Of a stretch of 64,000 nucleotides of DNA, positions 9,734-64,000 are shown one piece after another. Position 1 is the stretch's first letter. Each line of letters starts with the position of its first letter. Origin of the DNA: a virus (Duplodnaviria; Caudoviricetes); the IMG/VR virus record IMGVR_UViG_3300031555_004891; one strand, given 5' to 3'. Under the pieces are notes generated by a model. It was not told the DNA's origin and did no database searches. It worked only from the letters and a program-made list of their open reading frames with translations. Made by a program: the position numbers and the translations under genes.

Positions 9734-10378
9734 ATGGCTGAAGTACTTAATTTTTTATCTATTCCAGGCGCAGTAGCTGTTGTAATATTAGGTATTTGGG
9801 CTATATTACAAGTCATTGGAGAAATTCTTGAACTTAAAGGAAAAATAGTTCCAGAATTTATGAAAATAAGAAAATTCTTTGCTCGCAAGAAGAAAGAAAA
9901 AGCTGACAGAAAGCAAGCTGAGTAGGAAACAGCTCAAACATTGCTTGAAGTGAAACAGTTATTATCTGATGTTAACGCACATTATAATGCTGATAATATC
10001 TCTAGGAGAGATTGTTGGATGCATAGTGTTGATGATAATATTCAATGGACACATGAGCGTGCCGCAGTTTATGACAATTCAATTGCTAGCTTAAAAGATG
10101 ATTTTAGAGAGAATATGGCTATAACTGTTGATCTTTATATTAACTTTAACAGAAATAGAATTTTAGATTTTGCTAGTAAAGTTGCTGATGATAATGCATT
10201 AGCTTCAAAAGAAGAATTTAATCGTATTTATAAGATAAATAGAGATTATCATGAAATGCTAGCAAAATATGGTAAAGAAAATGGTGAAGTAGATACAGCT
10301 ATGACAATCATAAATGAAGCTTATGAGTATAGAATGAGACATCATTCTTTTATAGAGGATATTCGCGGATATCATTGA
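9734..10378 (+). CDS. Membrane-anchored holin-associated protein (214 aa, TAG=Gln)
   Basis: N-terminal TM helix; one TAG at 9923-9925 joins two ORFs. The RNRILDFA...EEF...NGEVD motif is familiar from lysis-module proteins of Firmicutes phages. Confidence 0.6.
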
Positions 10379-10398
10379 GATAAATGGAGGTTAGACCG

Positions 10399-10770
10399 AT
10401 GAACGAATTAATAATATTTTTCCAAAATTATGGTTTACCAATTACCTTAATAGCTCTTTTAGGGGTAATGGTTTTAGGAATTTTGAAATATTGCAATGTA
10501 TTCTCAAAAATAGATGAAAAATATAGACATTGGATTTATATTGGAATTTCAGTAGCTATATCAGTAATTGGAACTGTAATATATTTAGCTATAGCAGGTT
10601 AGCTTGATATAAATTATATATTAACGATAAGTGCAGCTCTATTTACACTTAATCAAGCTTTCTATAGTATATTTAAAGCTACATCAATCAATGATTTAGG
10701 TACAAAAGTACTTGATATTATCGTGCAAGTTTGGAATAAAATAAAAGAAAAGAAAAATCAGGGACAATAA
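10399..10770 (+). CDS. Putative holin (TAG=Gln)
   Basis: Two to three TM segments and a basic C-terminus. GGAGG RBS; one internal TAG at 10600-10602; TAA at 10768-10770. Confidence 0.6.
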
Positions 10771-10786
10771 AATTCCCTGATTTTTT
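10754..10786 (+). terminator. Intrinsic terminator
   Basis: AAAATCAGGGA...TCCCTGATTTTTT. Confidence 0.75.
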
Positions 10787-10974
10787 CCTGTATAAAAAGA
10801 GAAATTTTTTCTGTATATATAATTGTATAGAGATTATTTCTAGAGAATATAAAGCGAATATAATAAATAAGAAATTAATTAGTTAGGTAATAAAATATAT
10901 TACTTTAATTTTCTTTATTGAGATTTATAAGCTAAATTATATATAGAATAGATTAAAATTAAAGTGAGTAGACT

Positions 10975-13059
10975 ATGACTAACACAGATTATCTAAATTT
11001 TGAAGAATTAATGGATTTAAATCCAGAAGAGCGAGAAGCTGCTTTAAAGATTCTTTCTGAGCTATCTGAAAAAGGAAAATCAGAATAGCTTGATGATTAT
11101 TTATATTCTGATTTCGATGAAATTCCTGTTGATATACACACTTTTTTGCATAATAAAACATATTTAGGTAATGCTTTATATGATCAGGAAGGAAGATTTA
11201 CACTTTTTCCTTATTGGGAAGAAAAATTAAAAGAAATATTTCCATCACCAACAGAAACGAGATATAATACAATTGTTTTTACCGGAGCTATTGGTCTAGG
11301 AAAATCTACTATAGCTGTTATATGCTTATTATATATGCTATATAGATTATTATGTTTAAAAGATCCATATTTATATTACGGTATGCAACCTATAGATAAG
11401 ATATCTATTTCTCTTATGAATATAACTTTAGAGAATGCAAAAGGTGTTGCTTTAGATAAAATGAACTAGATGATTTTATCTAGTCAATGGTTCTTAGCTC
11501 ACGGCGAAATGGCTGGTAAAACAAATTTAGAATTTAGACCAGAAAAACATATTGAGCTCATAACAGCATCTAGTAACAATCAAGTAATTGGTCGTGCTTT
11601 GTTTGCAAATTTTACAGATGAGGTTAACTTTGGTTTAACTAGTGATGTAGAAAAATTAAAGAAAAAATAGAAAACACTTATCTCGCAAGTTGACGCTCGT
11701 ATGAAATCAAGATTCTTGCGTGGTACATATCTTCCAACATTAAATATTATTGCATCTTCTAAGAATAGTGAGCAATCATTTTTAGAAGATTTTATATAGG
11801 CTAAAATTAAAAATGAGTCGAAAAACACTTTAATTGTTGATGAACCACAATGGGTAGTTGACTCTAGAAAAGACTCAAAAGAAAAATTTTGGGTAGCAGT
11901 TGGTAATAAATTCTTAGCCAATGAAGTTTTACCTGTAGATGCTTCTGAAACATTAGTTGATGAGTATAGATCTAAAGGCTATTCTATGCTCCATGTACCT
12001 ATTGGTTATTTAGAAAACTTTATCGAAAATCTTGATGGAGCATTGACTGATATAGCTGGTATAGCTACAGCATCATCTTTAAAATATATTTCTGGTATGA
12101 AATGGAATGAGTGTGTAGATTTAGAAATCAAAAATCCTTTCACAAAAGAAATTTTAGAAGTTGGTGATGCTAAAGATGATAAAGTTTAGTATTATGATTA
12201 TTTTGACTTATCTCAAGTCCCATCGGATTTGAAAAGTAGGCCTTTATATATACATCTCGATATGTCTATATCTGGAGACAAAACTGGTATAGCTGGTGTT
12301 TGGATTAAGAGAAAGACTTATGTATCAGAGGGTTAGGATTAGTCAAAATCTTTATATTATAGAGTAGCTTTTTCTTGTGCTATAAAAGCACCTAAAGGTG
12401 CTCAAATTTCTTTTGAAAAAAATAAGAAATTTATATATTGGCTCAAAGAAAACGGTTTTAATGTTAAAAAGATAACTAGCGATACTTTCTAGTCAGCACC
12501 TGTTTTACAGGATTTAAGAGCTCATGGTTTCGATTGTGAAACTCAATCTGTAGATAGGTTGACTGGCGAAGGTAAAAATAAAATTTGTGAGCCTTATCAT
12601 TATTTTAGATCTACAATATATGAAAATAGATTATAGGTATATAAGACTCAATTATTAACAGAAGAAGTTATTGGTCTTGAAAAATTATCTGATGGTCATG
12701 TAGATCATACAACCTCAGGTATAAATTCAAAAGATATCAGTGACGCAGTTTGCGGTGCTATTTTTGAAGCTAGTAAACATGGTGAGTAGTTTGCATTTGA
12801 TTATGGAGAAGATTTAGATGTAGTCAAAGATGTAAGCAAAACTGTTACTATACAATCGTAGACGCAAGAAATAAATGAAGCTTTTTAGCAAGAATTGTAG
12901 AAAATGTTTGACCCTATGGCTAGACATATTCAAAAGACTGAGCAAACTAAACCTGATAATACACAACAATAGAAAAAATCACCATACACAGATTTTGGAA
13001 ATGGTGCTGCACAACCTTATGCTCCGGCTTATATGGCTCAAGGCATAGTGTTGTTTTAA
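10975..13059 (+). CDS. terL: Terminase large subunit (694 aa, about 14 in-frame TAG=Gln)
   Basis: Walker A GAIGLGKS, Walker B FTDEVNF, nuclease motifs HLDMS..GDKTG, DTF-Q-S and VDH...SKDISDAV. Single frame up to TAA at 13057-13059. Confidence 0.9.
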
Positions 13060-43876: not shown

Positions 43877-44203
43877 ATGAAACATTCGAATAAGAAAGTA
43901 GATTACATAATTTGTCCGCACTGTGGAGCAGAATATTTACCTAGTGAAATATATTATCCAGATAAATTTTTAGGTAAGCCTCATGATATAGATAAAGTAA
44001 ATAGTGGTAAAATAGATAATTTCTTAGGAAAGTCTATGGATTTAGAAGAAAGTTATCAATGTGATTTTTGTGATACAAAATTTAGAGTGACTGCAAAAAT
44101 TCAATTCAAAGTTGAGCAAGTTTCTAAGTATGATATGTCAAAAGCATATGTGACACCATTATTTGAAGAAAAATTGACTCTAGAAGAAGGGATAGCTGAA
44201 TAA
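43877..44203 (+). CDS. Zn-ribbon protein
   Basis: CPHC...CDFC; AGGAG RBS. Confidence 0.7.
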   Translation: MKHSNKKVDYIICPHCGAEYLPSEIYYPDKFLGKPHDIDKVNSGKIDNFLGKSMDLEESYQCDFCDTKFRVTAKIQFKVEQVSKYDMSKAYVTPLFEEKLTLEEGIAE

Positions 44204-46965
44204 TGATAAAAATATCAGAGCAAACAGCTAAAAAAGTTCCTGGACTAACAGCATTAGTAGTAGAAAGTCCATACAACCCACTAGTTGTAGATGTTCTGAA
44301 AAACGCTCAAGGATCAGATTATGATGCTAAAACAAAGTAGTGGGAAGTTCCAATAACTAACCTTTCTTATTTATTAGATCATTTTTCTATAATAGATGAT
44401 ATAGAATTAAATTTACTTGAAGATAAAAAAGCTAAAAATATAATTTTTTCACAAAAACCTGATGAGCCTTTTTAGATGTTTAAGCATCAAGCAGAAGCTG
44501 TAGAGTTTGGATTAAATAATCCTAAATGGTTATTACTTGATGCTCCCGGGCTTGGTAAAGCGCTTCCTTTAGATACACCTGTTTTAACACCTAATGGATT
44601 TAAACCTATCGATGCTATACATGCTGGTGATATAGTTTTCGATGATAAGGGAAACCCATGTAAAGTTATTGAAGAATTTTATCACGAATCTTTAGACATG
44701 TATAAATTAGATTTTACAACAAAAGATTCTATAATTTGCTGCAAAGATCATTTATGGTAGGTTAGATACAATAAAGGTGTCTGGGATAAGTGTGATAGAA
44801 AATATCATCTAACAGAGTTCAATGAAGCTCGACCTACTAGCTGGCTTATTGAAAATGATAATTGGAAAAAGAATTGTCTAAGAATACCATTTTGTGAGCC
44901 TATAAAATTTCCTAAAAATGAATTGCCTATTGATCCATATCTTTTGGGCTGCTTAATTGGGGATGGATCTTTTAGAAAATATATAAGTTTAACTTCGAGC
45001 GATCAGTTTATTATTGATCAATGTATACATAGCTTAGAGCAGCTTGAGGGAGATGCATTAAAAATAAGGCTTGATGGTAAATATAGTTATATATTTTCAA
45101 CAAAATCAAAGAAACCCTCTAAATTAAAGCATGAGTTAGATAAGCTTGGTTTATTAAATCATTTGTCTTACACAAAATTTATTCCTGATATTTATAAACA
45201 TAGTTCTGTAGAAGATCGTATAGCTCTGTTGCAAGGATTAATGGACACTGATGGTACAGTAAGTTCAGTAAAAACTTATAAGGGAAAATTATCTAATAAA
45301 GCATGTTTCGGAACCTCTTCTAAACAATTGCGGTACGATTTTGAATTCTTAATACAATCTTTAGGTGGTTGGTGTTCAACACGAGAGTTTACAGCTTCTT
45401 ATCGAGACGCATCTGGTTAGAAAAAATAGTGTGCTACTCATTATACAATTTCTATACATTTACCTGATAACTCTATCTTATTTAGATTGCCTAGGAAGAA
45501 AAATTTAGTGTCTAAAAGATATAATAAGCCTAGAAGAAAAATAAAGAATATTACATATGTTGGTAAGCAACCTGGAAAATGCATATCTGTAGACAGTCCA
45601 TCACATTGTTATCTAACAAAAAATTGCATTGTTACGCATAACACCTTATCATTGATTCGGCTAGCAGAAGAATTACATAATCAAGGAAAGATAGAGCATT
45701 GCTTAATAGTTTGTGGTATAAATACGCTTAAAAGAAACTGGCAAAAAGAAATATAGAAATTTAGCACATTAAGCTCTAGAATAATTGGTCAATACATAAG
45801 TTCAAAAGGTAAAGTTTATACCAGATCTGTTAAAGATAGGGTCGAAGAGCTAAAAAATCCTTTAGAAGAGTTTTTTATTATTATAAATGTGGAATCACTC
45901 AGAGATGATGATATAGTAAAAGCTATAAATAAAGGTAAGAATAAATTTGATATGATAGTTGTTGATGAGATTCATACCATGAAATCTCCGACCAGCTCTC
46001 AAGGAAAAAATTTACTAAAAATAAATAAAGCTAAGTATCAAGTAGGTGCTACTGGAACATTATTACTTAATGATCCTTTAGATACTTATATGGCTCTAAA
46101 ATGGATAGGTGCAGAACATTCTACATTAACTAAATTTAAGTATTATTACTGCGAATATGGTGGTCCTTTTGGAAATATGCTAGTTGGATTTAAAAATATG
46201 GATCTACTTAAATACCAACTTGAGCAAGTTTCTTTGAGAAGAAAAAAAGATTTACTAAATCTTCCAGATAAGAATATAATAGATGAGTTTGTTGATATGG
46301 AAACAGCTCAAAGTAATTTTTATGAAAATATAAAGAAAGGTATAGTAGATCAAGTAGATAAAGTAAAAATGTCTACAGCTAATTTGCTAGCTATGGTTAT
46401 AAGATTACGTCAAGCAGCAGAATGTCCAAATGTGTTAACTACAGAGAACATACCATCTGCTAAAATTGAACGTTGTATAGATTTAGCTAAACAAATATTA
46501 TCTGATCCAGATGAGAAAGTAGTTATTTTTAGTTGCTTTAAAGAATCAATAAATTTTATATATAAATAGTTAGCAGAGTTTAATCCATTGCTATGCACTG
46601 GAGATATTCCAGATGATATTATATCAAATAATGTCGATATGTTTCAAAATGATTCTGAGCATAGAGTTATAGTATGTACTGGACAAAAAATGGGAACTGG
46701 TATAACTCTAAATAGAGCGCATTATGCTATTTTTATAAATACACCATGGACAGCAGGTGTGCAAGAGCAATGGGAAGATCGTATATATAGAATCGGTACA
46801 AAGCAACCAGTATTTATATATAGATTATGGGTTAAAGACACTATAGATGAGCGAGTTTTAGACATTCTAAATACAAAAGGTGCCTTGAGTGATTATGTCA
46901 TAGATGACGAAATGACAACTCAGCAATTAGCTATATTAAGACAATATATAGAAGAATTAAGATAA
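44203..46965 (+). CDS. SNF2-family helicase containing an intein (920 aa precursor, TAG=Gln)
   Basis: LLDAPGLGK^T Walker A, DEIH, ATGT, GTGITLNRA, QWEDRIYRIG. Five fragments share one frame. Confidence 0.88.
44560..45642 (+). mobile_element. Class 3 intein with LAGLIDADG homing endonuclease (361 aa)
   Basis: Begins ALPLDTPVLT (Ala1). Block B DHLW, block F KCISV, ends VTHN before Thr. Endonuclease motifs LLGCLIGDG and LLQGLMDTDG. Confidence 0.88.
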
Positions 46966-53173: not shown

Positions 53174-55924
53174 ATGGTAGATTCATTGTGGGGTGATGAT
53201 TTCATTATAAAGAAAACCCCTAAAGAAGCTAAAAAGATAATTAAAAAAATATCTGAGCCAAAAGATTCTTCTTCTGTTGTAAAAAAAGCCGTAAAGTCCA
53301 AAAAACTATCCGTCCATGAAAAGTTAGCTATTATTACCGAGAATGTTAAAAAGATTCTCGGTAGATACGCTGACAACACTCAAGTGATAAGGACACGGCA
53401 AGAGTTAACTGATTATATCGACATAGCTATAAAAAATAATGTAATTGCGGTCGATACTGAAACGAATAACAGTCTTGACCCCATCACATGTAAATTGATG
53501 GGTCCCTGTTTATATACACCAGGTTTAAAGAATGCTTATGTACCATTAAATCATGTTAACCCAGATACTTTAGAAAGATTTGATTGGCAATTAACGGAAG
53601 AAGATGTAAAAGAAGAATTAAGTAGACTTACAGATACTAAAATAATAATGCACAATGGTAAGTTCGACTATTCTGTAATAAAATGCACCACAGGTGTTGA
53701 GTTAAGCATTTATTGGGATACAATGATTGGTGCAAAAGTTTTAGATGAGAATGAGAGGTCAGCTGGTTTGAAACAGCAGTATATCGAAAAGATAGATCCA
53801 TCTATTGAAAAATACTCTATAGATCACTTATTTGAAGATATAGAGTATGCGATGGTTGACCCAGAAATATTTGCTTTATATGCTGCAACAGACTCTTATA
53901 TGACTTATAAGCTTTATGAGTGGCAAAAAGATAAATTTGAGATACCTGGTCACCAGCGTTTATATAGCCTTTTTAGAAATGTAGAGATTCCTGTAATAAT
54001 TCCTATAGCTGAAATGGAAATGACTGGTGTAGAAGTAGATCAAGAATATGCTGAGTTGTTAAGTAAAAAGTATCATAAGAAATTAGATACAATCGATCTT
54101 AAAATAGCTGCAGAGTTAGCTACATTAAAAGATAAAATAGCTGAGTGGCGTTTAACAGAAGATGCTAATTTCCACCCGATAGCAACAAAACCTAACAAAT
54201 ATGGTGAGTATTTAGAGCAAAAATCTAAATCAGAGCAATTAGAAGATCCTATAAACTTAGCCAGTCCAACACAGTTAGCTATATTATTCTATGATATATT
54301 AAAATGTCCACCTGTAGATAAAAAGAAACCTAGAGGAACAGGTGAAGCAGAATTAAAAGCTATAGAGCAGAAATTAAAACTTCCTATTTGTAGCCTTTTA
54401 GTAGAAAGACGTGAATGGGTAAAATTGATAACTACTTACATAGACGTAATTCCGGAACTAGCAAAAAGATGGCCTGATGGTAGAGTTCGTACTCACTTTA
54501 ACCAATACGGGGCAGCTACGGGTCGTATGAGTTCGAGTGATCCGCTGAACCTGTAGAATATACCATCACATAATAAAGAAATCCGTATGTTATTTAGAGC
54601 TGCTGATAATTGTGTATTAGTTGGTAGCGACTTCAGTTTATAAATCTGTTGGCTGAAGTAAAACTTACTTAAACGGGGAACTCTCATTGAGACAATCCCG
54701 TGCCAAATCAATCTTAAGATTGATAGTGCGTAGAGACTATCGAAAAGGTAGGCGTAAGCTGAGTAACTGAGTAGAGTAGGCTTCAAGCGAAGTCGAAACA
54801 GTAAGCAACTAAAAAGTTGAAGAGTTAGTCCGACACTTCTAGTGATAGAAGAGAGGTGTAGCGAGCCTCAAAACAAGAAGCAACAAGAACCTAGATTACT
54901 CTCACAATACTCAGGTGATGAGAATATGATTAATGCTTATAAAGCAGGTAAAGACCTTTATGCTACTATTGCCTGTGGTGTATATAAAAATACGTATTGG
55001 GATAACATGGAGCATTGGGAAGATGGATCACCTAATCCTGAAGGTAAGAAACGTAGAGGTAATTGTAAGAGCTTACTTTTGGGGATAATGTATGGACGTG
55101 GTGTAGCTTCTATAGCTGAACAAATTAAAGGTACAGTAGAAGAAGCACAAAAAATTATCGATGATTTTTACACTGGATTTCCAAAAGTAAAAGAATGGAC
55201 TGATAAAACTCAAGCAGATGCTAAAAAGACTGGTTATGTAGAAGATTTATGGGGTAGAAGACGTAGACTTACAGATCTTATGCTTCCTAAATATACTATT
55301 AAAGACCTTAATGCTGCTAAACTTGATTTTAATCCTATCTTACACGCAGAAGGAAAGTTCTCGAAAAAAGAAAATCCTTCTATACAGAAATATAAAGCAG
55401 CACTTGAAAAAGTTCGCGGTAGAAAAGAATATGAAAAGCTAAAAGAGCAAGCATTGAAAGAAAATATAGAATTGCATGATAACACAGGTTTTATAGCTCA
55501 GGCTGAGAGACAATGTGTTAATGCTAGAATTCAGGGTGGTGCTGCTTCCATGACTAAAGTAGCTGTTATAAAGCTGTATAATGATAAAATTCTCAGAGAT
55601 TTAGGATTTAAGTTAAATATAGCCGTGCATGATGAGTTAATTGGTGAGTGCCCTAAAGAAAATGCAGATGCAGTAGCTGATAGACTTTGTGCTATAATGA
55701 AAGGTGCTGCTGAAGACGTTTGTGATGTACCATTTAAATGTGACCCTACAGTTGAGCATTGTTGGTATTTCTCAGATTTCTGCGATACTGTTCAAAAAGA
55801 ATTTAAAGAAGTTTTGAAAAAGTATAATAATGATTGGAATTCAGCATTTAATTATATGGTAGAAACTCATGAAGAATCAACAATTGATCAATTACATGAG
55901 CTTTTAGATGAAATAGCTGTATAA
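53174..55924 (+). CDS. polA: Family A DNA polymerase, join(53174..54637,54881..55924), 835 aa, TAG=Gln
   Basis: Exonuclease motifs DTET, HNGKFD, YAATD. TGRMSSSDPLNL-Q(TAG)-NIP. Motif A DFS^QQEPR is restored on splicing; motif B KSLLLGIMYG; motif C VHDE. Confidence 0.92.
54638..54880 (+). mobile_element. Group I intron (IA-like, 243 nt, no ORF)
   Basis: The 5' exon ends in U and pairs with GCTGAAGT (54652-54659, P1). TGTTG pairs with 3' exon CAACA (P10). P3 CTTACT/AGTAAG, P7 GACTA/TAGTC, terminal G. An in-frame TAA is present if unspliced. Confidence 0.88.
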
Positions 55925-55934
55925 ATAAATAACA

Positions 55935-55988
55935 ATGCGAAGTTCACACTCGAATATCCTTCGCATAATAAAATAAAACTTTAAGGAG
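55935..55988 (+). promoter_or_regulatory. preQ1-I-like riboswitch
   Basis: Stem ATGCGAAG/CTTCGCAT, loop starting UUC and ending AUC, A-rich tail ending AAAACU next to the SD AAGGAG. Directly upstream of a VUT-family transporter. Confidence 0.7.
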
Positions 55989-55997
55989 ATTTTTAAA

Positions 55998-56777
55998 ATG
56001 AGTAAAGTAAAAAATTGGTTTAAGTAGGAATGGAATGAGATCAAAACACTTTTAAGTAATGTTAACCCTTTAGTTATGACCTTTTTTATTCTAGGTGTTG
56101 TGGCTATGAATTTGCTAGCTAATAAGTCTATTGATTTAAGTTTTCTTCCTGGAAATGATGTTAATAACGGTGAGTTTGGTTGGTTAGCTTTAGATTGTGG
56201 CTTTTTAATCTCATGGTTATGCTTTTTTTCAATGGACAATATAGCTAGACGTTTCGGTCCTAAAGCATCAACCCAAATGACCATTGTTGCTATAGTTGTT
56301 AATTTAATTGTTTGTGGAATATTTCTGCTAGCTGGTATAATTCCTGGAACATGGGGTGAAAGTTATGTAGAAAATGGTGCGATTATAAATACTGCTTTAG
56401 ATAACACAATATCTGGAAGTTGGTATGTATTAATGGGATCAACTGTAGCATTTATTTGCTCAGCAATAGTACATGGGTTAGCTAGTACAGCTATAAGCAA
56501 AATCTTTAAGGATAAAGAGACACTTAAAGCATACGCAGTATGTAGTGCAGTAGGAACTAGCTTAGGCCAATTTGTAGATAATATGATTTTTGCTTTAATT
56601 GTAAGCTTAAACTTTTTTGGTTGGAATATTTTACAATGCATAATGTGTTCAATTACTGGTATGATATTTGAGTTTCTAATGAGTGTAATTTTTGTTCCTA
56701 TTGGTCATAAGATATATAAGAATGATCAAGAGCGAGCAAATAGAAAAGATGAGGTAGGATTCGAATGCGAGTTTTAA
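55998..56777 (+). CDS. yhhQ: VUT-family (YhhQ/COG1738) queuosine-precursor transporter (259 aa, TAG=Gln at codon 10)
   Basis: Multi-TM protein with MNLLANK, DNIARRFG, GSTVAF, SLGQFVDNMIF motifs. Confidence 0.8.
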
Positions 56778-57424
56778 TTACAGGAACATCTAAAGGAATA
56801 GGAAAAGCTATAGCTGAAAAATTTATTTATGAGCATGCTGATTGGGAAATCATTGGCTTTGATAGACTAGATTCTACTATAGATAAACCTAATTACAAAC
56901 ATTATAAAGTAGATGTTAGAGATGTAGAAAATTACCCAGATATTTCTAATATAAATATTATAATTAACAACGCTGGAACTCAGAATGAAGATGATATTAA
57001 CATTAACTTAAAGGGTGCGATTTCTATTACCGAGCGTTATGGAATCCAACCTGGAATTAAAAGTATCTTAATGATTGGGTCAGCGAGTGCACATACTGGT
57101 GATGAATTCCCTCAATACGTTGCTTCGAAAGGTGGTTTAATAGCTTACACAAAAAATGTAGCTAGAAGAATTGCTAAATATGGGGCAACCTGTAACAGCT
57201 TAGACTTTGGAGGTGTTTTAACCGAGTTAAATAAACCTGTTATGGAAAACAAAGAATGCTGGGATAAGATAATGGAAGTAACAGCATTAAAGCGTTGGAT
57301 GGAACCAGAAGAGACAGCTGATTGGGCTTATTTTGTTACTGTAATCAACAAAGGTATGACTGCGCAAACGCTTCTTATTGATAATGGGGAAGCTTCGATT
57401 GTAAACAATTTCCAATGGTGTTAA
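56765..57424 (+). CDS. Short-chain dehydrogenase/reductase (SDR)
   Basis: TGTSKGIG, NNAG, catalytic S and YVASK. Overlaps the transporter stop. Confidence 0.88.
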   Translation: MRVLITGTSKGIGKAIAEKFIYEHADWEIIGFDRLDSTIDKPNYKHYKVDVRDVENYPDISNINIIINNAGTQNEDDININLKGAISITERYGIQPGIKSILMIGSASAHTGDEFPQYVASKGGLIAYTKNVARRIAKYGATCNSLDFGGVLTELNKPVMENKECWDKIMEVTALKRWMEPEETADWAYFVTVINKGMTAQTLLIDNGEASIVNNFQWC

Positions 57425-57431
57425 AAAAATT

Positions 57432-57482
57432 AGTCAACTAGGTTAAAATCTAGTTGACTTTTCTTTTCAAATTTATTATAAT
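57432..57482 (+). promoter_or_regulatory. Terminator hairpin fused to a sigma70-type promoter (TTGACT-17-TATAAT)
   Basis: AGTCAACTAG/CTAGTTGACT hairpin; -35 at 57454-57459, -10 at 57477-57482. Confidence 0.75.
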
Positions 57483-57513
57483 ATATGTATACTAATAAAA
57501 TGTGAGGTACCGC

Positions 57514-58818
57514 ATGTTTAAAGATTTTGTAGACTTATGCACTAAATTAGCTGGAACAACTAGTCGACTCAAGAAAGAAGAATACTTGAGAGAATATGAA
57601 AATAATGATTATGTAAAGAAATGCTTATATTTTAGATTTAACCCATACATCACTACAGGTATTTCTAAAAAGAAGATTTCTAAATTACAGCAATCATTTG
57701 AAGATAGAATTGTAGACCCTAATTATAATGTTTTAGATCTGCTGGATTATATTAAAGAGCATAATACAGGTAGAGATGTAGATTTGAGCAAGCTTGAGAG
57801 TTATGCTGAGATGAATTCGCCTTACGCTGATATTATTTATGGTTTAGTTTCAAAAGAATTGAATTTAGGTATTCAAGCAATCACACTTAATAAAGTTTAT
57901 GGTGATAATTTTGTTCCAACGTTTGATTTAATGTTAGCTATGAAATATTTCGATGATCCAGATAAATATCTTCCAGATGGTACAGAATTTGACATTACAG
58001 CAAAACTAGATGGCGTAAGATGTGTTTGCTTTTATGATACTGATTCTATTAAATTCTTTAGCCGTCAAGGTCAACCTATTTATGGCTTAAATCAATTGGA
58101 AGAAGCAGTCAGAGAAAACTTAACACCTGGGTATGTTTATGATGGTGAGCTTCTGTTAAATAGATCAGATCTACACAGTAAAGATTTGTATAGAGCAACA
58201 GTAAAAGTAACATCTGCTGATGCTGTAAAAGAAAATATAGTTTTCAATATTTTTGATAGACTTTCAATAGAAGAATTCAAAAGAGGCTATTCGGATAGTA
58301 TTTCTAGAGATAGAAAAGATGCTTTGCATGCAGAATTGCAGCGTAATAAATCAGAATTCTTAAAAGAAGTAGAAATTCTTTATAGAGGAACAGATAAGTC
58401 TAAAATTCAATATTGGTTGGATAAAATTACATCAGAAGGCGGCGAAGGTGTAATGCTCAACTTATGTAATAGTCCATATGAGTGTAAAAGAAGTAAAGTA
58501 ATTCTTAAAGTAAAGAAAATGCAATCCGCAGATTTAAAATGTATTGCAGTAGAAGAAGGTACTGGTCAAAATGTTGGTAGACTAGGTGCAGCTATTGTAC
58601 AACTTCCTGTAGAAGATAAAATCTATGAAGTAAGTGTTGGTTCCGGTTTCACATTCGAAGATCGAGAATACTTCTGGAATAATAGAGAAGAAATTGTCGG
58701 TAAAATTATCGAGGTACAGTATTTCGAGATAACGCAAAACCAGCAAGGCGGATATAGTTTGAGATTCCCTGTATTTAAAGCAGTAAGAAACGATAAAACA
58801 GAAGTATCTATGTTTTAA
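57514..58818 (+). CDS. lig: ATP-dependent DNA ligase
   Basis: KLDGVR, YDGEL, EGVML, LKVK, SLRFP. Confidence 0.92.
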   Translation: MFKDFVDLCTKLAGTTSRLKKEEYLREYENNDYVKKCLYFRFNPYITTGISKKKISKLQQSFEDRIVDPNYNVLDLLDYIKEHNTGRDVDLSKLESYAEMNSPYADIIYGLVSKELNLGIQAITLNKVYGDNFVPTFDLMLAMKYFDDPDKYLPDGTEFDITAKLDGVRCVCFYDTDSIKFFSRQGQPIYGLNQLEEAVRENLTPGYVYDGELLLNRSDLHSKDLYRATVKVTSADAVKENIVFNIFDRLSIEEFKRGYSDSISRDRKDALHAELQRNKSEFLKEVEILYRGTDKSKIQYWLDKITSEGGEGVMLNLCNSPYECKRSKVILKVKKMQSADLKCIAVEEGTGQNVGRLGAAIVQLPVEDKIYEVSVGSGFTFEDREYFWNNREEIVGKIIEVQYFEITQNQQGGYSLRFPVFKAVRNDKTEVSMF

Positions 58819-58827
58819 TTAAAAATA

Positions 58828-58882
58828 AAAAGATCAGCTATAACGTAAAATAGTTGATCTTTTCCCATATTTATTATATAAT
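58828..58882 (+). promoter_or_regulatory. Terminator hairpin fused to a sigma70-type promoter (TTGATC-17-TATAAT)
   Basis: AGATCAGCTAT/ATAGTTGATCT hairpin; -35 at 58854-58859, -10 at 58877-58882. Confidence 0.75.
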
Positions 58883-58916
58883 ATATGTGTAAATAAATAG
58901 AAGAGGTATTTTTGTT

Positions 58917-60356
58917 ATGTTGCTAGTAGATTATTATTTTTATATTATTAAAGTATGCTATAAAAATAAGTGTGTATTTAAGTTTGGCGAATCTAAAACT
59001 GATAGACCAAAAAAGCTTTTAAAAGAATATGAAAATAAAAAGAATGTAACTGCAAAACTTCTCTACACAGATACACTTCCAAATAATGGGTATAATAGAT
59101 TATCTGATAAAGTTATTCATAAATATATTTCTAAAATGTATGAAAAAGCTAATAAGTATGAGATTCAAGTAGAGTTGGGTACAACTGATGGAATAACTGA
59201 GTTTTTTATTTGCAAGATTGGAGAATCTGATGATAAACTAGTTGAAAACTTAAAAAATATTGTATATACTATTGATACTAATCATTATAAAATTGCAGTA
59301 GAGTATTTAGATAATATCGAAAAAATACATTTTCCTCAAAACCATCAGGTCTGCTTCTATTATACTGATGCGATGGAAAAATTAGGTAATTTTCAATTAT
59401 GTGATGAGAAAGATAAACTAATAGTACTTATCGGTCAATTTACACCACAATATATAAATAGATTTGCATTCAGAAATAAAATAATAATCTGGCAAGATTC
59501 TGGTGAGACAGAATTTGCTTATGAGGATTCGAGATGTAATCAAAACATCACTTACATTTCAGATTTGGAGACATTAATTAAGATGAATCAAGACAATAAA
59601 TTTAATTATGTTTTAAGCAACCCACCATACGAATTTGCAAGCCAAATAACAAAAGCTATAATTGATAATGTAAACTTTGATACTTTTGTTAATTTAATGC
59701 CATTAAGTGATTATAATAAAGATAGTTTGTATCGATATGTAAGCAAGTTTGAGTTGGTTGACCCTACTAAATTTAAAGATGCGAAAATCACTAAAAATTT
59801 AAACATAGCAGTTATTGAACCAGATATAGTAGATAAATATTCCGATAGAGAATCTTTTGAAATAGAATCTTTTGATCCTAAATTTAAGTTATTTTATCAA
59901 ATTAATACTAATAGAGAGCATTATTGTTTATCTAGCTTTGCTTATGCTTCTAAATTGAAGTTTCAACCTAATCCATATACTGATGTGTATTTAACATTAA
60001 GAACAATCTTTGATGGTGTACATAAAACTAATAACTGCGCTGATTATAAATGGAATATTGAAAAAATTACATCAAATACGTTGTTAATAAAGAATTTTGG
60101 CGGTGAAGATTGTTTGTGGGGTTCTATATTTAGATTTAAAACCGAAATAGAGCATAAAAATTTTTGTACCTGGTGGTATCACGGTAATTTAAGCCACAAG
60201 CTAATAAAAGGATTAAACAAGACTAGTGGCACTCCAAAAATTGCGTTACCTAGAATTGATTGGTCTCGAACAGATGTAGAATATACCGATGAATATGTTT
60301 TAGAACAAATGGGATTAAAATGGAATGAAAATAAAGATGGGGTAGAGAAATTATGA
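58917..60356 (+). CDS. Fusion of a GIY-YIG/T5orf172-like N-domain to an NPPY methyltransferase catalytic/TRD half
   Basis: YIIKV...FKFGES...TEFF N-terminus; FNYVLSNPPY; no recognisable SAM-binding motif I. Confidence 0.6.
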   Translation: MLLVDYYFYIIKVCYKNKCVFKFGESKTDRPKKLLKEYENKKNVTAKLLYTDTLPNNGYNRLSDKVIHKYISKMYEKANKYEIQVELGTTDGITEFFICKIGESDDKLVENLKNIVYTIDTNHYKIAVEYLDNIEKIHFPQNHQVCFYYTDAMEKLGNFQLCDEKDKLIVLIGQFTPQYINRFAFRNKIIIWQDSGETEFAYEDSRCNQNITYISDLETLIKMNQDNKFNYVLSNPPYEFASQITKAIIDNVNFDTFVNLMPLSDYNKDSLYRYVSKFELVDPTKFKDAKITKNLNIAVIEPDIVDKYSDRESFEIESFDPKFKLFYQINTNREHYCLSSFAYASKLKFQPNPYTDVYLTLRTIFDGVHKTNNCADYKWNIEKITSNTLLIKNFGGEDCLWGSIFRFKTEIEHKNFCTWWYHGNLSHKLIKGLNKTSGTPKIALPRIDWSRTDVEYTDEYVLEQMGLKWNENKDGVEKL

Positions 60357-60622
60357 AAACAAAAATTTGGGAAAAAGATTTTAATGTATGTGGATTTAAA
60401 GCAGAGGATAAAGAACTTCTTCGTAAATATGTACCAAATATGGATACATGCTTATCTATTAAAAAGATAGCAAAAAGCGCTGCTGAGTTATCAATGCTTG
60501 ATGGTACATCTTATTATGTATCCTGCTATATTGGTGGAGTAAATAAAGGTCATATTTGTTGTATACAAACAACAGAAAAAAGATCTGCTGACAGGAAACG
60601 TTTATATCCTATAAAAGAATAA
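60353..60622 (+). CDS. Hypothetical protein
   Basis: ATGA-coupled 89 aa ORF. Confidence 0.55.
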   Translation: MKTKIWEKDFNVCGFKAEDKELLRKYVPNMDTCLSIKKIAKSAAELSMLDGTSYYVSCYIGGVNKGHICCIQTTEKRSADRKRLYPIKE

Positions 60623-60674
60623 TGTGCAGGATATTCAATAATAAAATAAAAAAAAATAGGAAGTATAAACAAAA

Positions 60675-61037
60675 ATGTCTAACTATATAACAATTATTTC
60701 AAAAGAAGATATAAAATATTTACCAGACTGGATAGCATTTGTTATGTTTGCTATTCTAGCAGCTATTGTAATTATTCCAACAGTTATTAGTTGGGCTATA
60801 GTAAAGAAAAAGAATAAACCATGGATTAATATACTTTGTACTGAGGTTATTTCTGGTGCTGTTGCTATTATAGGTGTTATCATTTTTGTTTTTACTGTGC
60901 AACCACATATGTTAGAACCATCAGGAAAATATACATATAAAGCAACTGTTGATAAAAATAAAATTACTGTTTCAGAATATGAAGATTTTATTGAGAAGTA
61001 TAAACCTAAATTTCAAGATGGTTATTATTACTTCTAA
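60675..61037 (+). CDS. Two-TM membrane protein
   Basis: Two hydrophobic helices. Confidence 0.6.
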   Translation: MSNYITIISKEDIKYLPDWIAFVMFAILAAIVIIPTVISWAIVKKKNKPWINILCTEVISGAVAIIGVIIFVFTVQPHMLEPSGKYTYKATVDKNKITVSEYEDFIEKYKPKFQDGYYYF

Positions 61038-61054
61038 GCAGAAGATATAGAGAA

Positions 61055-61270
61055 ATGAAAATATATAATATAGGAAATTATAGAGTACATCTCAGCAATA
61101 AGAAGAAGCCTGAGTCAAATTACAGCAAATTTATTGTTTATAAAAATGGGGTAAAAGGTGACCTAGATGGTGGCTACTTGAGATGGGAAAACGAAGACGT
61201 GATTGTTCCTAGATTAACAAAAGTATTAAAAGAATGGGATAACCTAGATGTTGGAAAAGAAAACATTTGA
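61055..61270 (+). CDS. Hypothetical protein
   Basis: 71 aa ORF within the operon. Confidence 0.5.
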   Translation: MKIYNIGNYRVHLSNKKKPESNYSKFIVYKNGVKGDLDGGYLRWENEDVIVPRLTKVLKEWDNLDVGKENI

Positions 61271-61982
61271 TTTAATTATAAGCAACCCACCTTATAAATA
61301 TGGGAATGAGGTTATTAAAAATACTTTATAGGTAACCGGAGAAAAAGCCGTTATACTAATGCCTGCTGCTAAATATAAAGCAGATAGGCTTTTCTCCCAT
61401 ATCGAGAATATTGAGTTAGCTGATAAAAATTTCTTTAAAGATAAGAAGCAGGATATTAAACCTGATTTAAGCATAGCTGTATGTGTAGCTGATAGTAATG
61501 ATGAAATAACTTTTGAAAAGGTTATGGATTCTCTATTACCAGAAGATATAGCGCAATTTTTGGACTTAAATAGAAAATTGAGTAAGAAATATGATCGATT
61601 AACTTATATGAAAAGTATGAGAGAAAAAGTTTCTGGAAATAAAGAATATTTTATGGTTCCTTATTGGCAGCATGTTGGTTGTGCTAGATCTGATAAAAGC
61701 GTAACTAGAAAATATAATTTTGGCGATACAGATGCGATAAATAAAATATTAAACAGTGATATGTGCTATAGCGTTTTGAAATTTCCTTCTTCTGCTTATT
61801 GGAATAATTTCTTTAATTGGTATTATAAAAATGATATTCAAGATTATATTTTATTAAACTGCTGTGATTTATTATATCCTAGTTACATATGGTTCCCGCA
61901 GATAGATTTTTCTATAGATAGAGATTATGCAAATTTAACTTTTCTTCAACTTTTAGAAATAATGTTTTCGGAAATAAAGTAA
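61248..61982 (+). CDS. Adenine methyltransferase catalytic/TRD half (NPPY; 244 aa, TAG=Gln)
   Basis: Read-through of TAG 61329-61331 gives N-terminal MLEKKTFDLIISNPPY. The C-terminus resembles that of 58917. Confidence 0.75.
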
Positions 61983-62029
61983 CACAAAATATGATCCTGT
62001 ATAAAGATATAAAGGGGTAATGTACTTTT

Positions 62030-62455
62030 ATGCAATTATCTAATGAAATAAAAGAAAAAATAAAAACAGAATACACAGAGTGGTTTAATTCTCAATATGG
62101 TGATAAAACATTAGAAGAGAGAAGAAAATTAGGTGCTTTTTTCACACCGCCTGAGCTAACCATTAAAATGATAGAGAAATTCGATTCTATAGAAAACAAA
62201 ACTATTCTAGACCCTACATGTGGTACAGGTAATTTATTAGCAGGTTGCATAATAGCAGGTGCTAATCCAGAAATGATTTATGGAAACGAATATGATCCAA
62301 CATTTGTACAGTTATGTAGAGATAGATTGAAAAAATTAGGTGTTCCTGAGTCTAATATACATGAGGGTGATGCACTTAATCCAGAAGCATTAAAGAGAAG
62401 TAATTTCACAGATAACTGGAATAAAGATGTTGGTTGTAAAACAGAATTATGGTAA
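62030..62455 (+). CDS. Stand-alone SAM-binding half of an N6-adenine methyltransferase
   Basis: GAFFTPPEL (motif X), ILDPTCGTGNLL (I), IYGNEYD (II), GDAL (III). Ends before any NPPY. Confidence 0.8.
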   Translation: MQLSNEIKEKIKTEYTEWFNSQYGDKTLEERRKLGAFFTPPELTIKMIEKFDSIENKTILDPTCGTGNLLAGCIIAGANPEMIYGNEYDPTFVQLCRDRLKKLGVPESNIHEGDALNPEALKRSNFTDNWNKDVGCKTELW

Positions 62456-62464
62456 AAAGATATT

Positions 62465-62623
62465 ATGAAAATTTGGAAAATGAAAGATTGTTTTTATTCA
62501 GATATCATAAAAGAATTAAATAATTTAGAAAAGAAACATGCTGTTGTTAGAGAAATTACAGCTAGTAATGAACACTGGTTTACAATATTTTACACTATAG
62601 AAGATAAGGTAGAAGAAGAATGA
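62465..62623 (+). CDS. Small hypothetical protein (52 aa)
   Basis: Open frame with ATGA coupling to the GNAT gene. Confidence 0.5.
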   Translation: MKIWKMKDCFYSDIIKELNNLEKKHAVVREITASNEHWFTIFYTIEDKVEEE

Positions 62624-63102
62624 GATTTTGTAATGTATGTGATTGCACAGATGCTAAAAATGATTGCAAGACATGTAAATATAGAGAAGAATGTGATTAT
62701 GTTTGGGTAACAGAAATTTGGAAAAAGAATCAGAAGCTCTTAACGCCATTAAACCCAGGTTGGGTTAAGCCTGATTTTAAAAATAATCACGTAGTAACAG
62801 TTAGTGGTAAATATGATTTTTGTGTTTTTAACGTACCAAAAAAGACTGAGACTATAACTATAAATGACATTTGTGTTGATGAGGCTGGAAGAGGTCAGGG
62901 TTTATCTAAAAAACTTATTTATGGGTTAATGGAAAAATATGATCGAGATATTATAGCTAAATGCGTAAAAGATAGCTCAGCAGAAGATTTTTGGTCTCAT
63001 ATGGGCGAAAAGATAGCAGAAGAGCCTGGTAAGCAACGTCCTTTATCTGTGTATAAGGTACGTAATGAAAAAATGAGTATGAGAAAACAGGAATTATTTT
63101 AA
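62620..63102 (+). CDS. GNAT-family acetyltransferase with Cys-rich N-terminus
   Basis: ICVDEAGRGQGLSKKLI acetyl-CoA loop; AEDFWSHMG. Confidence 0.8.
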   Translation: MRFCNVCDCTDAKNDCKTCKYREECDYVWVTEIWKKNQKLLTPLNPGWVKPDFKNNHVVTVSGKYDFCVFNVPKKTETITINDICVDEAGRGQGLSKKLIYGLMEKYDRDIIAKCVKDSSAEDFWSHMGEKIAEEPGKQRPLSVYKVRNEKMSMRKQELF

Positions 63103-63172
63103 TAATTTTATTAAATATGAAAGCACTGTTTTTGTATAAATATAATGAAACATAGACATTTTGGAGGAAGTA

Positions 63173-64000
63173 ATGGAAAAACTAATCAATCAAGATTGGA
63201 CTAATCCTTTTACTAATTGTAAAATAGGTGAAGATTATTATGGAATTATAGCTGCTGGCGAAGGTGTTAAAAATGTAAAAATGCCTGATGGGACTATTCT
63301 TGATGCTAGCGATGTTAAGAGAGATTTGGGTTATCCACAACTTTTTGCTTGGAATTTAGAAGGAAAAGCCTTGTTGGAATGGGTTGAGTATTTAGATAAA
63401 AATCCTGATTGTCCCTGTAAGTTAGTTGTTGACTCAGGTGCGTATTCTATGTGGAGCCGTGGAAAAGAATTTGATATGGATGAGTATATCAATTTCTTAA
63501 ACAGTAATGATGTTATAGAAAAAGCTTTTTGGGTAGCAGAAGCTGACGTTATCCCTGGAAGTATGGGTGTAGATCCAACAGAAGAAGAAAGAGCAGCAGC
63601 ACCTGAAAAAAGCTGGGAAAACTTCTTATATATGGTAGATAGAGTTAAAATTCCTAAGAAAATTGTACCTATTTTCCATCAAGGTGAAGATATCAAGCAT
63701 TTGAGACGAATGTTAGCTTATAGATATCCAGATGGTGATTTCATTCCATATATTGGAATTTCTCCTCGAAATGATGTCCATGTTAATGAAAAATCAAAAT
63801 GGTATGAGTATATTTGGAAAGTTATTTATGAAGATTGTGCAGCTTTAGGTCGGGATATTCCATTGACTCATAACTTTGGTATGACTACTATAGCTCTCAT
63901 GGAGCAGTATCCTAGTTACACATCAGATTCGACTTCATGGATTAGAAGCGCATCTTTTGGTAATATAATGATTATAGTAAATGGTAAAATAAAAACTGTA
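63173..64000 (+). CDS. dpdA: TGT-fold 7-deazaguanine DNA transglycosylase (DpdA-like), 3'-truncated
   Basis: Absent from the ORF track because it has no stop in the window. GGAGG RBS; motifs VVDSGAYS, DVIPG, VPIFHQGE, YIGIS, THNFGMT, SDSTSW. Confidence 0.82.
   Translation, partial: MEKLINQDWTNPFTNCKIGEDYYGIIAAGEGVKNVKMPDGTILDASDVKRDLGYPQLFAWNLEGKALLEWVEYLDKNPDCPCKLVVDSGAYSMWSRGKEFDMDEYINFLNSNDVIEKAFWVAEADVIPGSMGVDPTEEERAAAPEKSWENFLYMVDRVKIPKKIVPIFHQGEDIKHLRRMLAYRYPDGDFIPYIGISPRNDVHVNEKSKWYEYIWKVIYEDCAALGRDIPLTHNFGMTTIALMEQYPSYTSDSTSWIRSASFGNIMIIVNGKIKTV

Follow-up and report, generated by a model that had tools for sequence, protein, structure and literature searches.

How could a phage that encodes a DpdA-type guanine transglycosylase, and that carries no que genes, obtain the base to be written into its DNA? 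The question is raised by the end of a 64,000-nucleotide stretch of the IMG/VR virus record IMGVR_UViG_3300031555_004891 (Duplodnaviria; Caudoviricetes), the whole of which is called the window here. Phage 7-deazaguanine DNA modifications defeat restriction enzymes, and in the cases tested so far the base is made by the phage or by its host. The system in the window appears to be fed by import, with a riboswitch-like leader RNA tuning that import, which would link anti-restriction in phages with the gut's pool of queuosine-type micronutrients. We read it as a module by which a TAG-recoded phage of the gut or rumen salvages a 7-deazaguanine for DNA modification, and give the full mechanism proposed below a probability of about 0.68. 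The module has the following features.

55935-55988, + strand: enlarged preQ1-I-like leader, with an 8-bp P1 stem, a 16-nt loop, an A-rich tail and a Shine-Dalgarno sequence
55998-56777, + strand: VUT/YhhQ-family transporter, 259 aa (Pfam Vut_1), with an in-frame TAG at 56025
56765-57424, + strand: classical short-chain dehydrogenase/reductase (SDR), 219 aa (adh_short 56.5 bits and adh_short_C2 62.4 bits, both above cut-offs)
62620-63102, + strand: GNAT acetyltransferase, 160 aa, with a GNAT fold and the C-terminal end ...KQELF
63173-64000, + strand, running past the window end: DpdA-type guanine transglycosylase, first 276 residues (PHROG 887, 2e-42)

Probable import in place of synthesis

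An earlier note, made from these letters alone, had proposed that the phage senses and imports queuosine precursors and writes them into its DNA. The core of that reading holds, since the leader is also found before a queF gene, the genes co-occur, and relatives lack que genes; the ligand, the base and the DNA target are predictions. The co-occurrence, which the note had proposed to examine, extends to about 12 related phage lineages that carry the transporter, SDR, GNAT and dpdA together. All four are present in the window and in the related genomes G001, G002 and G004, two of which (G002 and G004) are complete, with terminal repeats, and one of which (G001) is 80% complete. Searches by tblastn with FolE, QueC, QueD, QueE and QueF found none in the window or in these three genomes, and a Pfam search for QueC agrees. 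The note's remark that folE, queC, queD and queE are missing from the window is thus correct, and its suggestion to look for que genes in the rest of the genome led to the same result in the two complete relatives.

In a sister phage (L005/G003), genes for QueD, QueE, a type-II QueF, QueC and FolE come immediately before dpdA, whose product shares 74% identity with that of the window, and G003 has no VUT, SDR or GNAT. The de novo preQ1 module and the salvage module therefore share one slot, with the same leader and the same promoter-like motif. The G003 phage reads TGA as Trp, and its DpdA and FolE (L005, region 9932-11002) are full length only under code 4. Reading its open reading frames (ORFs) with TAG as Gln was rejected, since this split its DpdA and TGA as Trp fits. 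The window phage and the other relatives recode TAG, so that closely similar replication modules occur in phages with different stop-codon recoding. The same leader before queF in a TGA-to-Trp phage offers a natural test case for how phages exchange whole modules. Some distant DpdA phages (L059-L063) have DpdA, QueD, QueE and FolE followed by a clamp gene, with no QueC or QueF within 10 kb, a gene set that could correspond to a modification of the 7-carboxy-7-deazaguanine (CDG) type.

The transporter was confirmed by the profile search that the note had suggested. Vut_1 (PF02592, COG1738) matches at 58.8 bits against a cut-off of 27.2 (E=1.1e-15, profile positions 1-148 of 152), while NCBIfam TIGR00697 scores 31.2 bits, under its cut-off of 50.95. 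The protein is a divergent member of the family, so its substrate cannot be read from the family name, and a queuosine precursor is the predicted one. Phage DpdA systems, and phage yhhQ genes beside dpdA, are already established (PMC6884629, PMC7544227). Like the window, Escherichia phage CAjan has a YhhQ/VUT gene in its dpdA cluster (Kot et al. 2020, PMC7544227). Unlike the window phage, CAjan also has FolE, QueD, QueE and QueC, its yhhQ is dispensable and its base is preQ0 (PMC7544227), and no riboswitch, SDR or GNAT has been described for it.

The SDR and the transporter both lie where the earlier note had placed them, and the first 13 nt of the SDR gene are also the last of VUT, an overlap suggestive of translational coupling. 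The SDR has the motifs TGxSxGIG and NNAG along with S106, Y118 and K122. In alignment A7 the residues G7, G11, G13, A70, G71, S106 and Y118 are invariant and N68, N69 and K122 are nearly so. D33, after the second strand, suggests a preference for NAD. Close homologues number in the thousands. Orthologues in species-representative genomes number about 37, at 46-63% identity, below which there is a sharp drop to generic SDRs. Their hosts are gut and rumen Clostridia, Bacteroidales, Elusimicrobium, Fibrobacter and Coriobacteriia. Of the 37, 34 have VUT immediately before the SDR in the same orientation, across several phyla and often in overlapping frames, and one such pair sits in plainly bacterial surroundings. 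A generic FabG moron was considered for the SDR and rejected on account of this near-obligate pairing.

Among five genomes that carry the VUT-SDR pair, TGT (tRNA-guanine transglycosylase) is present in four and QueA in all five, while neither QueF nor a true QueC was found in any (0/5). These bacteria must therefore get preQ1 from outside. VUT-SDR is a bacterial salvage cassette that has been captured by phages, and the SDR therefore most likely acts on the free imported base. The earlier note had suggested that the SDR and the GNAT may remodel the imported precursors; for the SDR, preparing the free base is more likely than remodelling a base in DNA. An abundant SDR orthologue of 63% identity on bacterial contigs (L069-L071) has no VUT upstream, and about 470 nt after it comes an ordinary 174-aa GNAT, which is probably a coincidence.

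In some phages an amidase-signature enzyme replaces the SDR directly after VUT (L004:3232-4725 and L045:5849-7330, also L046). The VUT-amidase pair, with overlapping genes, is also present in Treponema-like and other bacteria, again with this type of leader in front (L154:3171-5467 and L157:3252-5458); in L157 it is followed by a CN_hydrolase gene. The swap suggests that each kind of imported precursor has its own processing enzyme, SDR or amidase. Clostridioides difficile reportedly salvages queuine and queuosine with queK, qrtT and a radical-SAM (S-adenosylmethionine) queuine lyase, queL, behind a preQ1-I riboswitch. That system resembles the present one in that a single operon under riboswitch control encodes both a transporter and an enzyme for precursor processing, and in that its owner depends on preQ1 but cannot make it. 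It is said to differ in its transporter, of the energy-coupling factor (ECF) type where the window has VUT, and in its enzymes, a radical-SAM lyase and a nucleoside hydrolase in place of an SDR or amidase-signature enzyme. No published description of the riboswitch-VUT-SDR pair was found, nor any paper linking an SDR to the salvage of queuosine precursors or to DpdA. The widespread SDR and the alternative amidase, bound to VUT in gut bacteria that are unable to make preQ1, are candidates for missing queuosine-salvage enzymes.

The leader RNA and a promoter-like motif

The leader closes with the Shine-Dalgarno sequence AAGGAG at 55983-55988, and its 16-nt loop has UUC at the start, C at the end and a nested mini-helix inside. 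It is kept before VUT in every relative, giving nine related phage leaders (that of the window and eight others). All share a stem of 6-8 bp, a loop of the form UUC...C, an A-rich tail and a constant distance to the Shine-Dalgarno sequence; the sequence of the stem varies and its pairing is kept. In alignment A5, of seven leaders, there are ten pairs with 98.6% of cells paired. Three of these pairs have compensatory changes, one of them within the nested 4-bp mini-helix. The covariation score was reached by none of 500 shuffles, and structures slid by 1-3 columns pair at 30-53%. With seven sequences, the covariation support for the stem is moderate. No convincing P2 pairing could be recognized by eye.

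A covariance model built from the seven leaders (R1) was run against about 1 Mb of phage DNA. There is one match per genome, upstream of VUT, with two exceptions: a weaker second copy upstream of VUT in G004, and the site in G003, directly upstream of queF, which scores 47.9 bits. The window leader scores 65.3 bits. Leaders of this type also stand before the bacterial VUT-SDR and VUT-amidase operons, there with an intrinsic terminator; by a strict pattern they were found before 14 of 32 bacterial VUT-SDR pairs, against about 0.35 expected.

This leader resembles the preQ1-I riboswitch (RF00522; Zallot et al. 2017, PMC5372724) in its short hairpin, UUC...C loop and A-rich tail running into the Shine-Dalgarno sequence. 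It also resembles it in lying upstream of genes for the transport or synthesis of queuosine precursors, as do the preQ1 riboswitches behind which bacterial yhhQ (COG1738) genes sit (PMC5372724). Unlike RF00522, the phage leaders have a longer P1 (6-8 bp) and a loop of 15-16 nt that holds the covarying mini-helix, against about 11-13 nt in canonical preQ1-I copies. They also match the Rfam model at no more than 26.2 bits, or not at all, where the gathering score is 39. In the window RF00522 gave no match at the gathering threshold, at E<=10 or in a 91-nt search, and there was no preQ1 match at the gathering threshold among L001-L008 and 14 bacterial loci. Homologous leaders with shorter loops do align with the whole RF00522 model, at 22.8 bits for L004 and 26.2 bits for L066, both below the gathering score. 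The RNA that the earlier note had called preQ1-I-like is thus conserved, covarying and placed before VUT or queF, and it is an enlarged preQ1-I-like variant with a putative ligand, not a canonical Rfam preQ1-I. Current Rfam models miss this RNA. No report was found of a riboswitch-type leader in a phage DpdA module, nor of a salvage-only version of such a module with a coupled SDR or amidase.

Two loci carry additional elements. In L066 (9100-11000) two VUT genes flank dpdA, the first behind two tandem elements consisting of a hairpin and an A-tail and the second behind the 26.2-bit PreQ1 element. In L006 (7089-7130) an extra, shorter preQ1-I-like copy lies about 220 nt upstream of the main one.

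A promoter-like motif precedes the leader, and related copies lie at two other places near the module.

55917-55927, + strand: promoter-like motif CTGTATAAATA, overlapping the polA stop codon, about 10 nt upstream of the leader
61996, + strand: promoter-like motif CCTGTATAAA, preceding the SAM-binding half of a methyltransferase
63132-63142, + strand: promoter-like motif TTGTATAAATA, upstream of dpdA

The core TGTATAAA has 11 copies on the + strand. Seven of the 11 fall in the approximately 4% of the DNA that is intergenic, including those at 55918, 61998, 63133 and 52203. The L005 leader upstream of queF is preceded by the same motif, as TTGTATAAT. The earlier note had seen the same (C/T)TGTATAA promoter-like motif before both blocks. 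The motif is real but does not tie the two blocks together; a module-specific role was rejected, because its copies are spread over many intergenic regions, and it is best described as a general, genome-wide phage promoter-like signal on the basis of its distribution.

DpdA, the acetyltransferase and the proposed pathway

The dpdA gene starts at the ATG at 63173 behind a GGAGG ribosome-binding site. Contigs with an identical SDR extend further, and they show the remainder of dpdA as well as its downstream genes. The full protein of the same phage type has 353 aa (L067:16409-17470), ends in ...KTELW and is followed by a sliding-clamp gene (a PHROG 947 match). No Pfam family, TGT included, and no NCBIfam model matches it, and searches of the PDB by single sequence or by profile found nothing. 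PHROG 887 does match, at 2e-42. The AlphaFold model (pLDDT, the predicted local distance difference test, of 79) has as its top 50 Foldseek matches only tRNA-guanine transglycosylases, at probability 1.0. The TGT (beta/alpha)8 fold aligns with a VIA Z of 19-20 and a root-mean-square deviation of 3.3-3.9 A, with 275-289 residues aligned over residues 6-348. The TGT-fold DpdA of the earlier note is therefore sustained; of the profile searches it had suggested, PHROG found the family and Pfam TGT was silent. Two invariant Asp residues, D81 (VVDSGAYS) and D246 (SSDSTSW), are candidate catalytic residues, picked by eye. A 360-aa ORF at L044:10498 was considered as a DpdA and rejected as an unrelated inserted gene, and was taken out of the alignment.

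The nearest DpdA from an isolate is gp07 of Streptococcus phage Dp-1, with 38.5% identity over 92% of the length (E=1e-56). That of Bacillus phage Flasso is also among the nearest, and both phages have a QueF-type gene. Dp-1 DNA carries dPreQ1, as determined by liquid chromatography-mass spectrometry (PMC6884629). The Dp-1 cluster encodes FolE, QueC, QueD, QueE, a QueF-like protein, QueT and DpdA (PMC6884629). As in the window, a precursor transporter adjoins dpdA (Hutinet et al. 2019, PMC6884629), and dpdA lies in a replication module, where in Dp-1 a clamp, a Cas4-like nuclease, RecU and a recombinase follow. In contrast to the window phage, which lacks que genes and has VUT and a coupled SDR behind a riboswitch-like leader plus the GNAT, Dp-1 synthesizes preQ1 de novo and has QueT, a transporter of the ECF type. 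The target of the window DpdA is most likely DNA, because of its place in the Dp-1 clade, its position in the replication module before the clamp gene, and a C-terminal tail shared with other proteins (see below).

The GNAT lies directly upstream of dpdA, as the earlier note had stated, and it does so in every context examined, always in a phage that also has VUT. Its family rests on the model of its fold, since the best Pfam match, Acetyltransf_7, is sub-threshold (18.9 bits, cut-off 27). The AlphaFold model has a pLDDT of 86.8, and Foldseek found 245 PDB chains at E<=0.001; all 50 of the matches listed are GNAT-family chains, with TM of about 0.6. In the RGQG acyl-CoA motif R91 and G92 are invariant, Q93 is invariant only in the six-sequence alignment A1, and G94 is nearly so (A1, A6). 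The N-terminus has a conserved cluster of five Cys. In the databases, all 40 of 40 clusters of this family are metagenomic and belong to this phage group only, one of them being a phage contig that was binned into a Bacilli metagenome-assembled genome. A place for the GNAT in the bacterial salvage cassette was rejected, as the bacterial VUT-SDR and VUT-amidase loci do not have it. The GNAT is accessory and is not required for DpdA function, because it is absent from G003 and from the more remote L057 and L065/L066, all of them DpdA phages.

The tail of the GNAT resembles those of DpdA and of two further enzymes in the window.

57502-58818, + strand: ATP-dependent DNA ligase (Pfam DNA_ligase_A_M; PHROG 114, 3e-83), ending in ...EVSMF
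62030-62455, + strand: SAM-binding half of an N6-adenine DNA methyltransferase, 141 aa (Pfam N6_Mtase, 37.2 bits), ending in ...KTELW

C-terminal ends of the form [DEQST][LIM][WF] occur in three of the 62 complete ORFs of the window, namely the ligase, the methyltransferase half and the GNAT. The pattern recurs in G002 (5 of 182 ORFs, including DpdA, GNAT and the methyltransferase half) and in G004 (3 of 244, including GNAT and DpdA). It fits a clamp-binding peptide and a GNAT that would act on DNA.

Formylation of dPreQ1 by DpdN and its methylation by DpdM are documented in phage DNA (PMC10516641). Because such derivatives are already known, N-acylation of the inserted base is the leading hypothesis for the GNAT. 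Like DpdN and DpdM (Cui/Hutinet et al. 2023, PMC10516641), it is an accessory enzyme beside deazaguanine genes that could derivatise the aminomethyl group of preQ1. Unlike the formyltransferase DpdN and the methyltransferase DpdM, it is a GNAT, and the group transferred would be an acyl group from acyl-CoA. No paper was found that links a GNAT to the salvage of queuosine precursors or to DpdA. We know of no report of an acylated 7-deazaguanine base in DNA, and a GNAT that is confined to phages and lies beside DpdA could make a new DNA base.

Taken together, the module would work as follows. A phage promoter would transcribe the enlarged preQ1-I-type leader, and when a 7-deazaguanine, the putative ligand, is plentiful the leader would mask the Shine-Dalgarno sequence and switch off VUT and the SDR. 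At other times VUT would import a queuosine-related base, the exact compound being a prediction, from the gut environment. The NAD-type SDR, coupled to VUT, would then turn the imported form into the substrate of the transglycosylase, most likely preQ1. A chemically plausible, conjectural route would be NAD-dependent oxidation of the allylic alcohol in the cyclopentenediol of queuine followed by beta-elimination of preQ1. DpdA, of the Dp-1/dPreQ1 clade, would swap guanine in phage DNA for the salvaged base. The GNAT would then most likely acylate the aminomethyl group of the inserted base in DNA, in parallel to DpdN and DpdM; the earlier note's suggestion that the GNAT remodels the base survives in this predicted form. 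DpdA, GNAT, the ligase and the methyltransferase half may sit on the sliding clamp by way of their K-x-E-L-W/F tails. In its most specific form, the proposal would be phage DNA with an N-acyl (for example N-acetyl) aminomethyl-7-deazaguanine made by DpdA and a clamp-tethered GNAT. The SDR would serve as an oxidative, non-radical lyase of the queuine type that yields preQ1, the amidase-signature enzyme would handle another precursor, and the whole would be under the control of an enlarged riboswitch. We regard this combination as speculative and unlikely to hold in all of its parts.

Several observations weigh against the pathway, beginning with its control and import steps. The window leader has no Rfam preQ1 match, its enlarged loop folds into a nested mini-helix, and the ligand of the riboswitch is putative. 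A hairpin of this kind, which can also form a simple extended stem-loop, might be a mere terminator of polA or a stabilising structure that senses no ligand. This is very improbable: no U-run follows the stem, the leader lies downstream of a promoter-like motif, and the ends of the loop, the A-rich tail and the spacing from the Shine-Dalgarno sequence are kept while the stem covaries. The leader also recurs before queF in G003 and before the bacterial VUT-SDR and VUT-amidase operons, and at some loci intermediate forms lead over to copies with a PreQ1 score in Rfam. The amidase found in place of the SDR is a further difficulty, as a single precursor hardly explains both enzymes, and VUT could import preQ1 directly, leaving the SDR without an obvious role. 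The final substrate, preQ1 or preQ0, might then enter as such, with the SDR or amidase unrelated or accessory and carried along in the captured cassette. E. coli YhhQ imports preQ0, yhhQ is also said to have a role in preQ1 import, and no known chemistry calls for an SDR. Deletion of yhhQ in phage CAjan left the modification unchanged, CAjan also making preQ0 itself (PMC7544227). Direct import of the final substrate is nevertheless unlikely, since the SDR is paired with VUT near-obligately (34 of 37 species in several phyla), the pair is kept in phages, even in L057 with its different gene order, and other bacteria and phages have the amidase at this position after a leader of the same type. 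These patterns point to a processing step tied to the transporter.

The two enzymes that would write the base raise similar doubts. Pfam TGT misses DpdA, and comparing the DpdA profile with a bacterial TGT by hhalign produced no significant alignment. Every fold match is a tRNA-guanine transglycosylase, the annotation of PHROG 887 is tRNA-ribosyltransferase, and Hutinet et al. describe phages with Q-pathway genes and no DpdA that possibly boost queuosine. Salvaged preQ1 might on these grounds serve to raise queuosine in host or phage tRNA, for instance so as to adjust the decoding of a recoded genome, with the DNA left unmodified. There is little reason to expect this, and we hold it to be improbable in the extreme: the protein is closest to the DpdAs of Dp-1 and Flasso, and dPreQ1 is present in Dp-1 DNA. 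The gene lies in a replication module directly before the clamp, its tail is common to a DNA ligase and a DNA methyltransferase half, the window has no tRNA genes, and the DpdA alignment has neither a CxCxxC...H zinc motif nor a PUA-type extension. The GNAT is the step most exposed to another explanation, and its absence from several DpdA phages also counts against the pathway. It might acetylate the free base or a salvage by-product, so as to trap or detoxify it, or a host or phage protein, its adjacency to dpdA reflecting operon packing. It is absent from G003, which makes preQ1 de novo, as well as from L057 and L065/L066, it occurs, at the loci examined, only in phages that also have VUT, and its best structural matches are N-acetyltransferases of small molecules and proteins. 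A role outside DNA is rather unlikely even so. Bacteria with VUT-SDR or VUT-amidase do not have this GNAT, so that salvage as such needs none, its conserved K-x-E-L-F/W tail is common to DpdA, the ligase and the methyltransferase half, and its N-terminal Cys cluster is of the kind expected for nucleic-acid binding. Salvage of an environmental base and its insertion into phage DNA by DpdA, with the GNAT as a probable finishing enzyme, is therefore the reading we retain.

The remainder of the window

The window belongs to a TAG-recoded phage, as many of its long ORFs are open only with TAG as a sense codon (one frame has 14 in-frame TAGs) and its closest relatives are IMG/VR viral contigs. These contigs are 131-181 kb long, and two have direct terminal repeats. 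A megablast search of GenBank phages with 24 kb of the window found no match, and neither did an exact 40-mer search of IMG/VR for the contig of the window. All long reading frames, and all genes of the module, are on the + strand, the GC content is about 31%, and no tRNA genes were found in the window. It codes for tail fibre, tail sheath and helicase-like proteins. One helicase-like ORF (44203-46965) of 920 aa has seven in-frame TAGs and matches to terminase large-subunit families as well; in L006 and L007 an inserted 372-aa gene splits the homologue.

Upstream of the module lies the end of polA.

Stop codon at 55924, + strand: C-terminal part of PolA (ORF)

The family A DNA polymerase occupies two ORFs in the window, 53174-54643 and 54842-55924, with a gap of about 200 nt. 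In the relatives this gene is broken by inserted ORFs, and in L047 it is a single product of 1202 aa with a faint LAGLIDADG match and an intein-like look.

The gene order in the relatives is PolA, VUT, SDR, often an 84-aa SemiSWEET/YgjV-like protein, GNAT, DpdA and sliding clamp. There no more than about 1 kb separates the SDR from the GNAT, and no ligase and methyltransferase genes intervene, except for methyltransferase-related ORFs in L003/G002. Because of this, the ligase and methyltransferase block at 57502-62623 is taken as an insertion peculiar to the window phage and outside the salvage module. After the ligase, the block holds several small or unknown ORFs and pieces of the N6-adenine methyltransferase, up to 62623. 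The methyltransferase seems to be in pieces, with its SAM-binding half preceded by two distant paralogous ORFs of 23% identity, 58917-60356 (479 aa, with an NPPY motif) and 61248-61982 (244 aa). In G002 a 423-aa homologue of these two lies just upstream of the SAM-binding half, and its N-terminus looks GIY-YIG-like by eye.

In L001 (7962-8657) a GDSL/SGNH hydrolase is inserted between VUT and SDR. The SemiSWEET/YgjV-like membrane protein, which is absent from the window, has 84-100 aa and weak Pfam matches to Imp-YgjV and MtN3 (copies at L002:8587-8841, L004:4728-4982, L006:8989-9285, L008:8503-8808 and L063:12511-12726). It lies between the SDR and GNAT of relatives, adjoins folE in a de novo-type phage, and may be a second deazaguanine-linked transporter.

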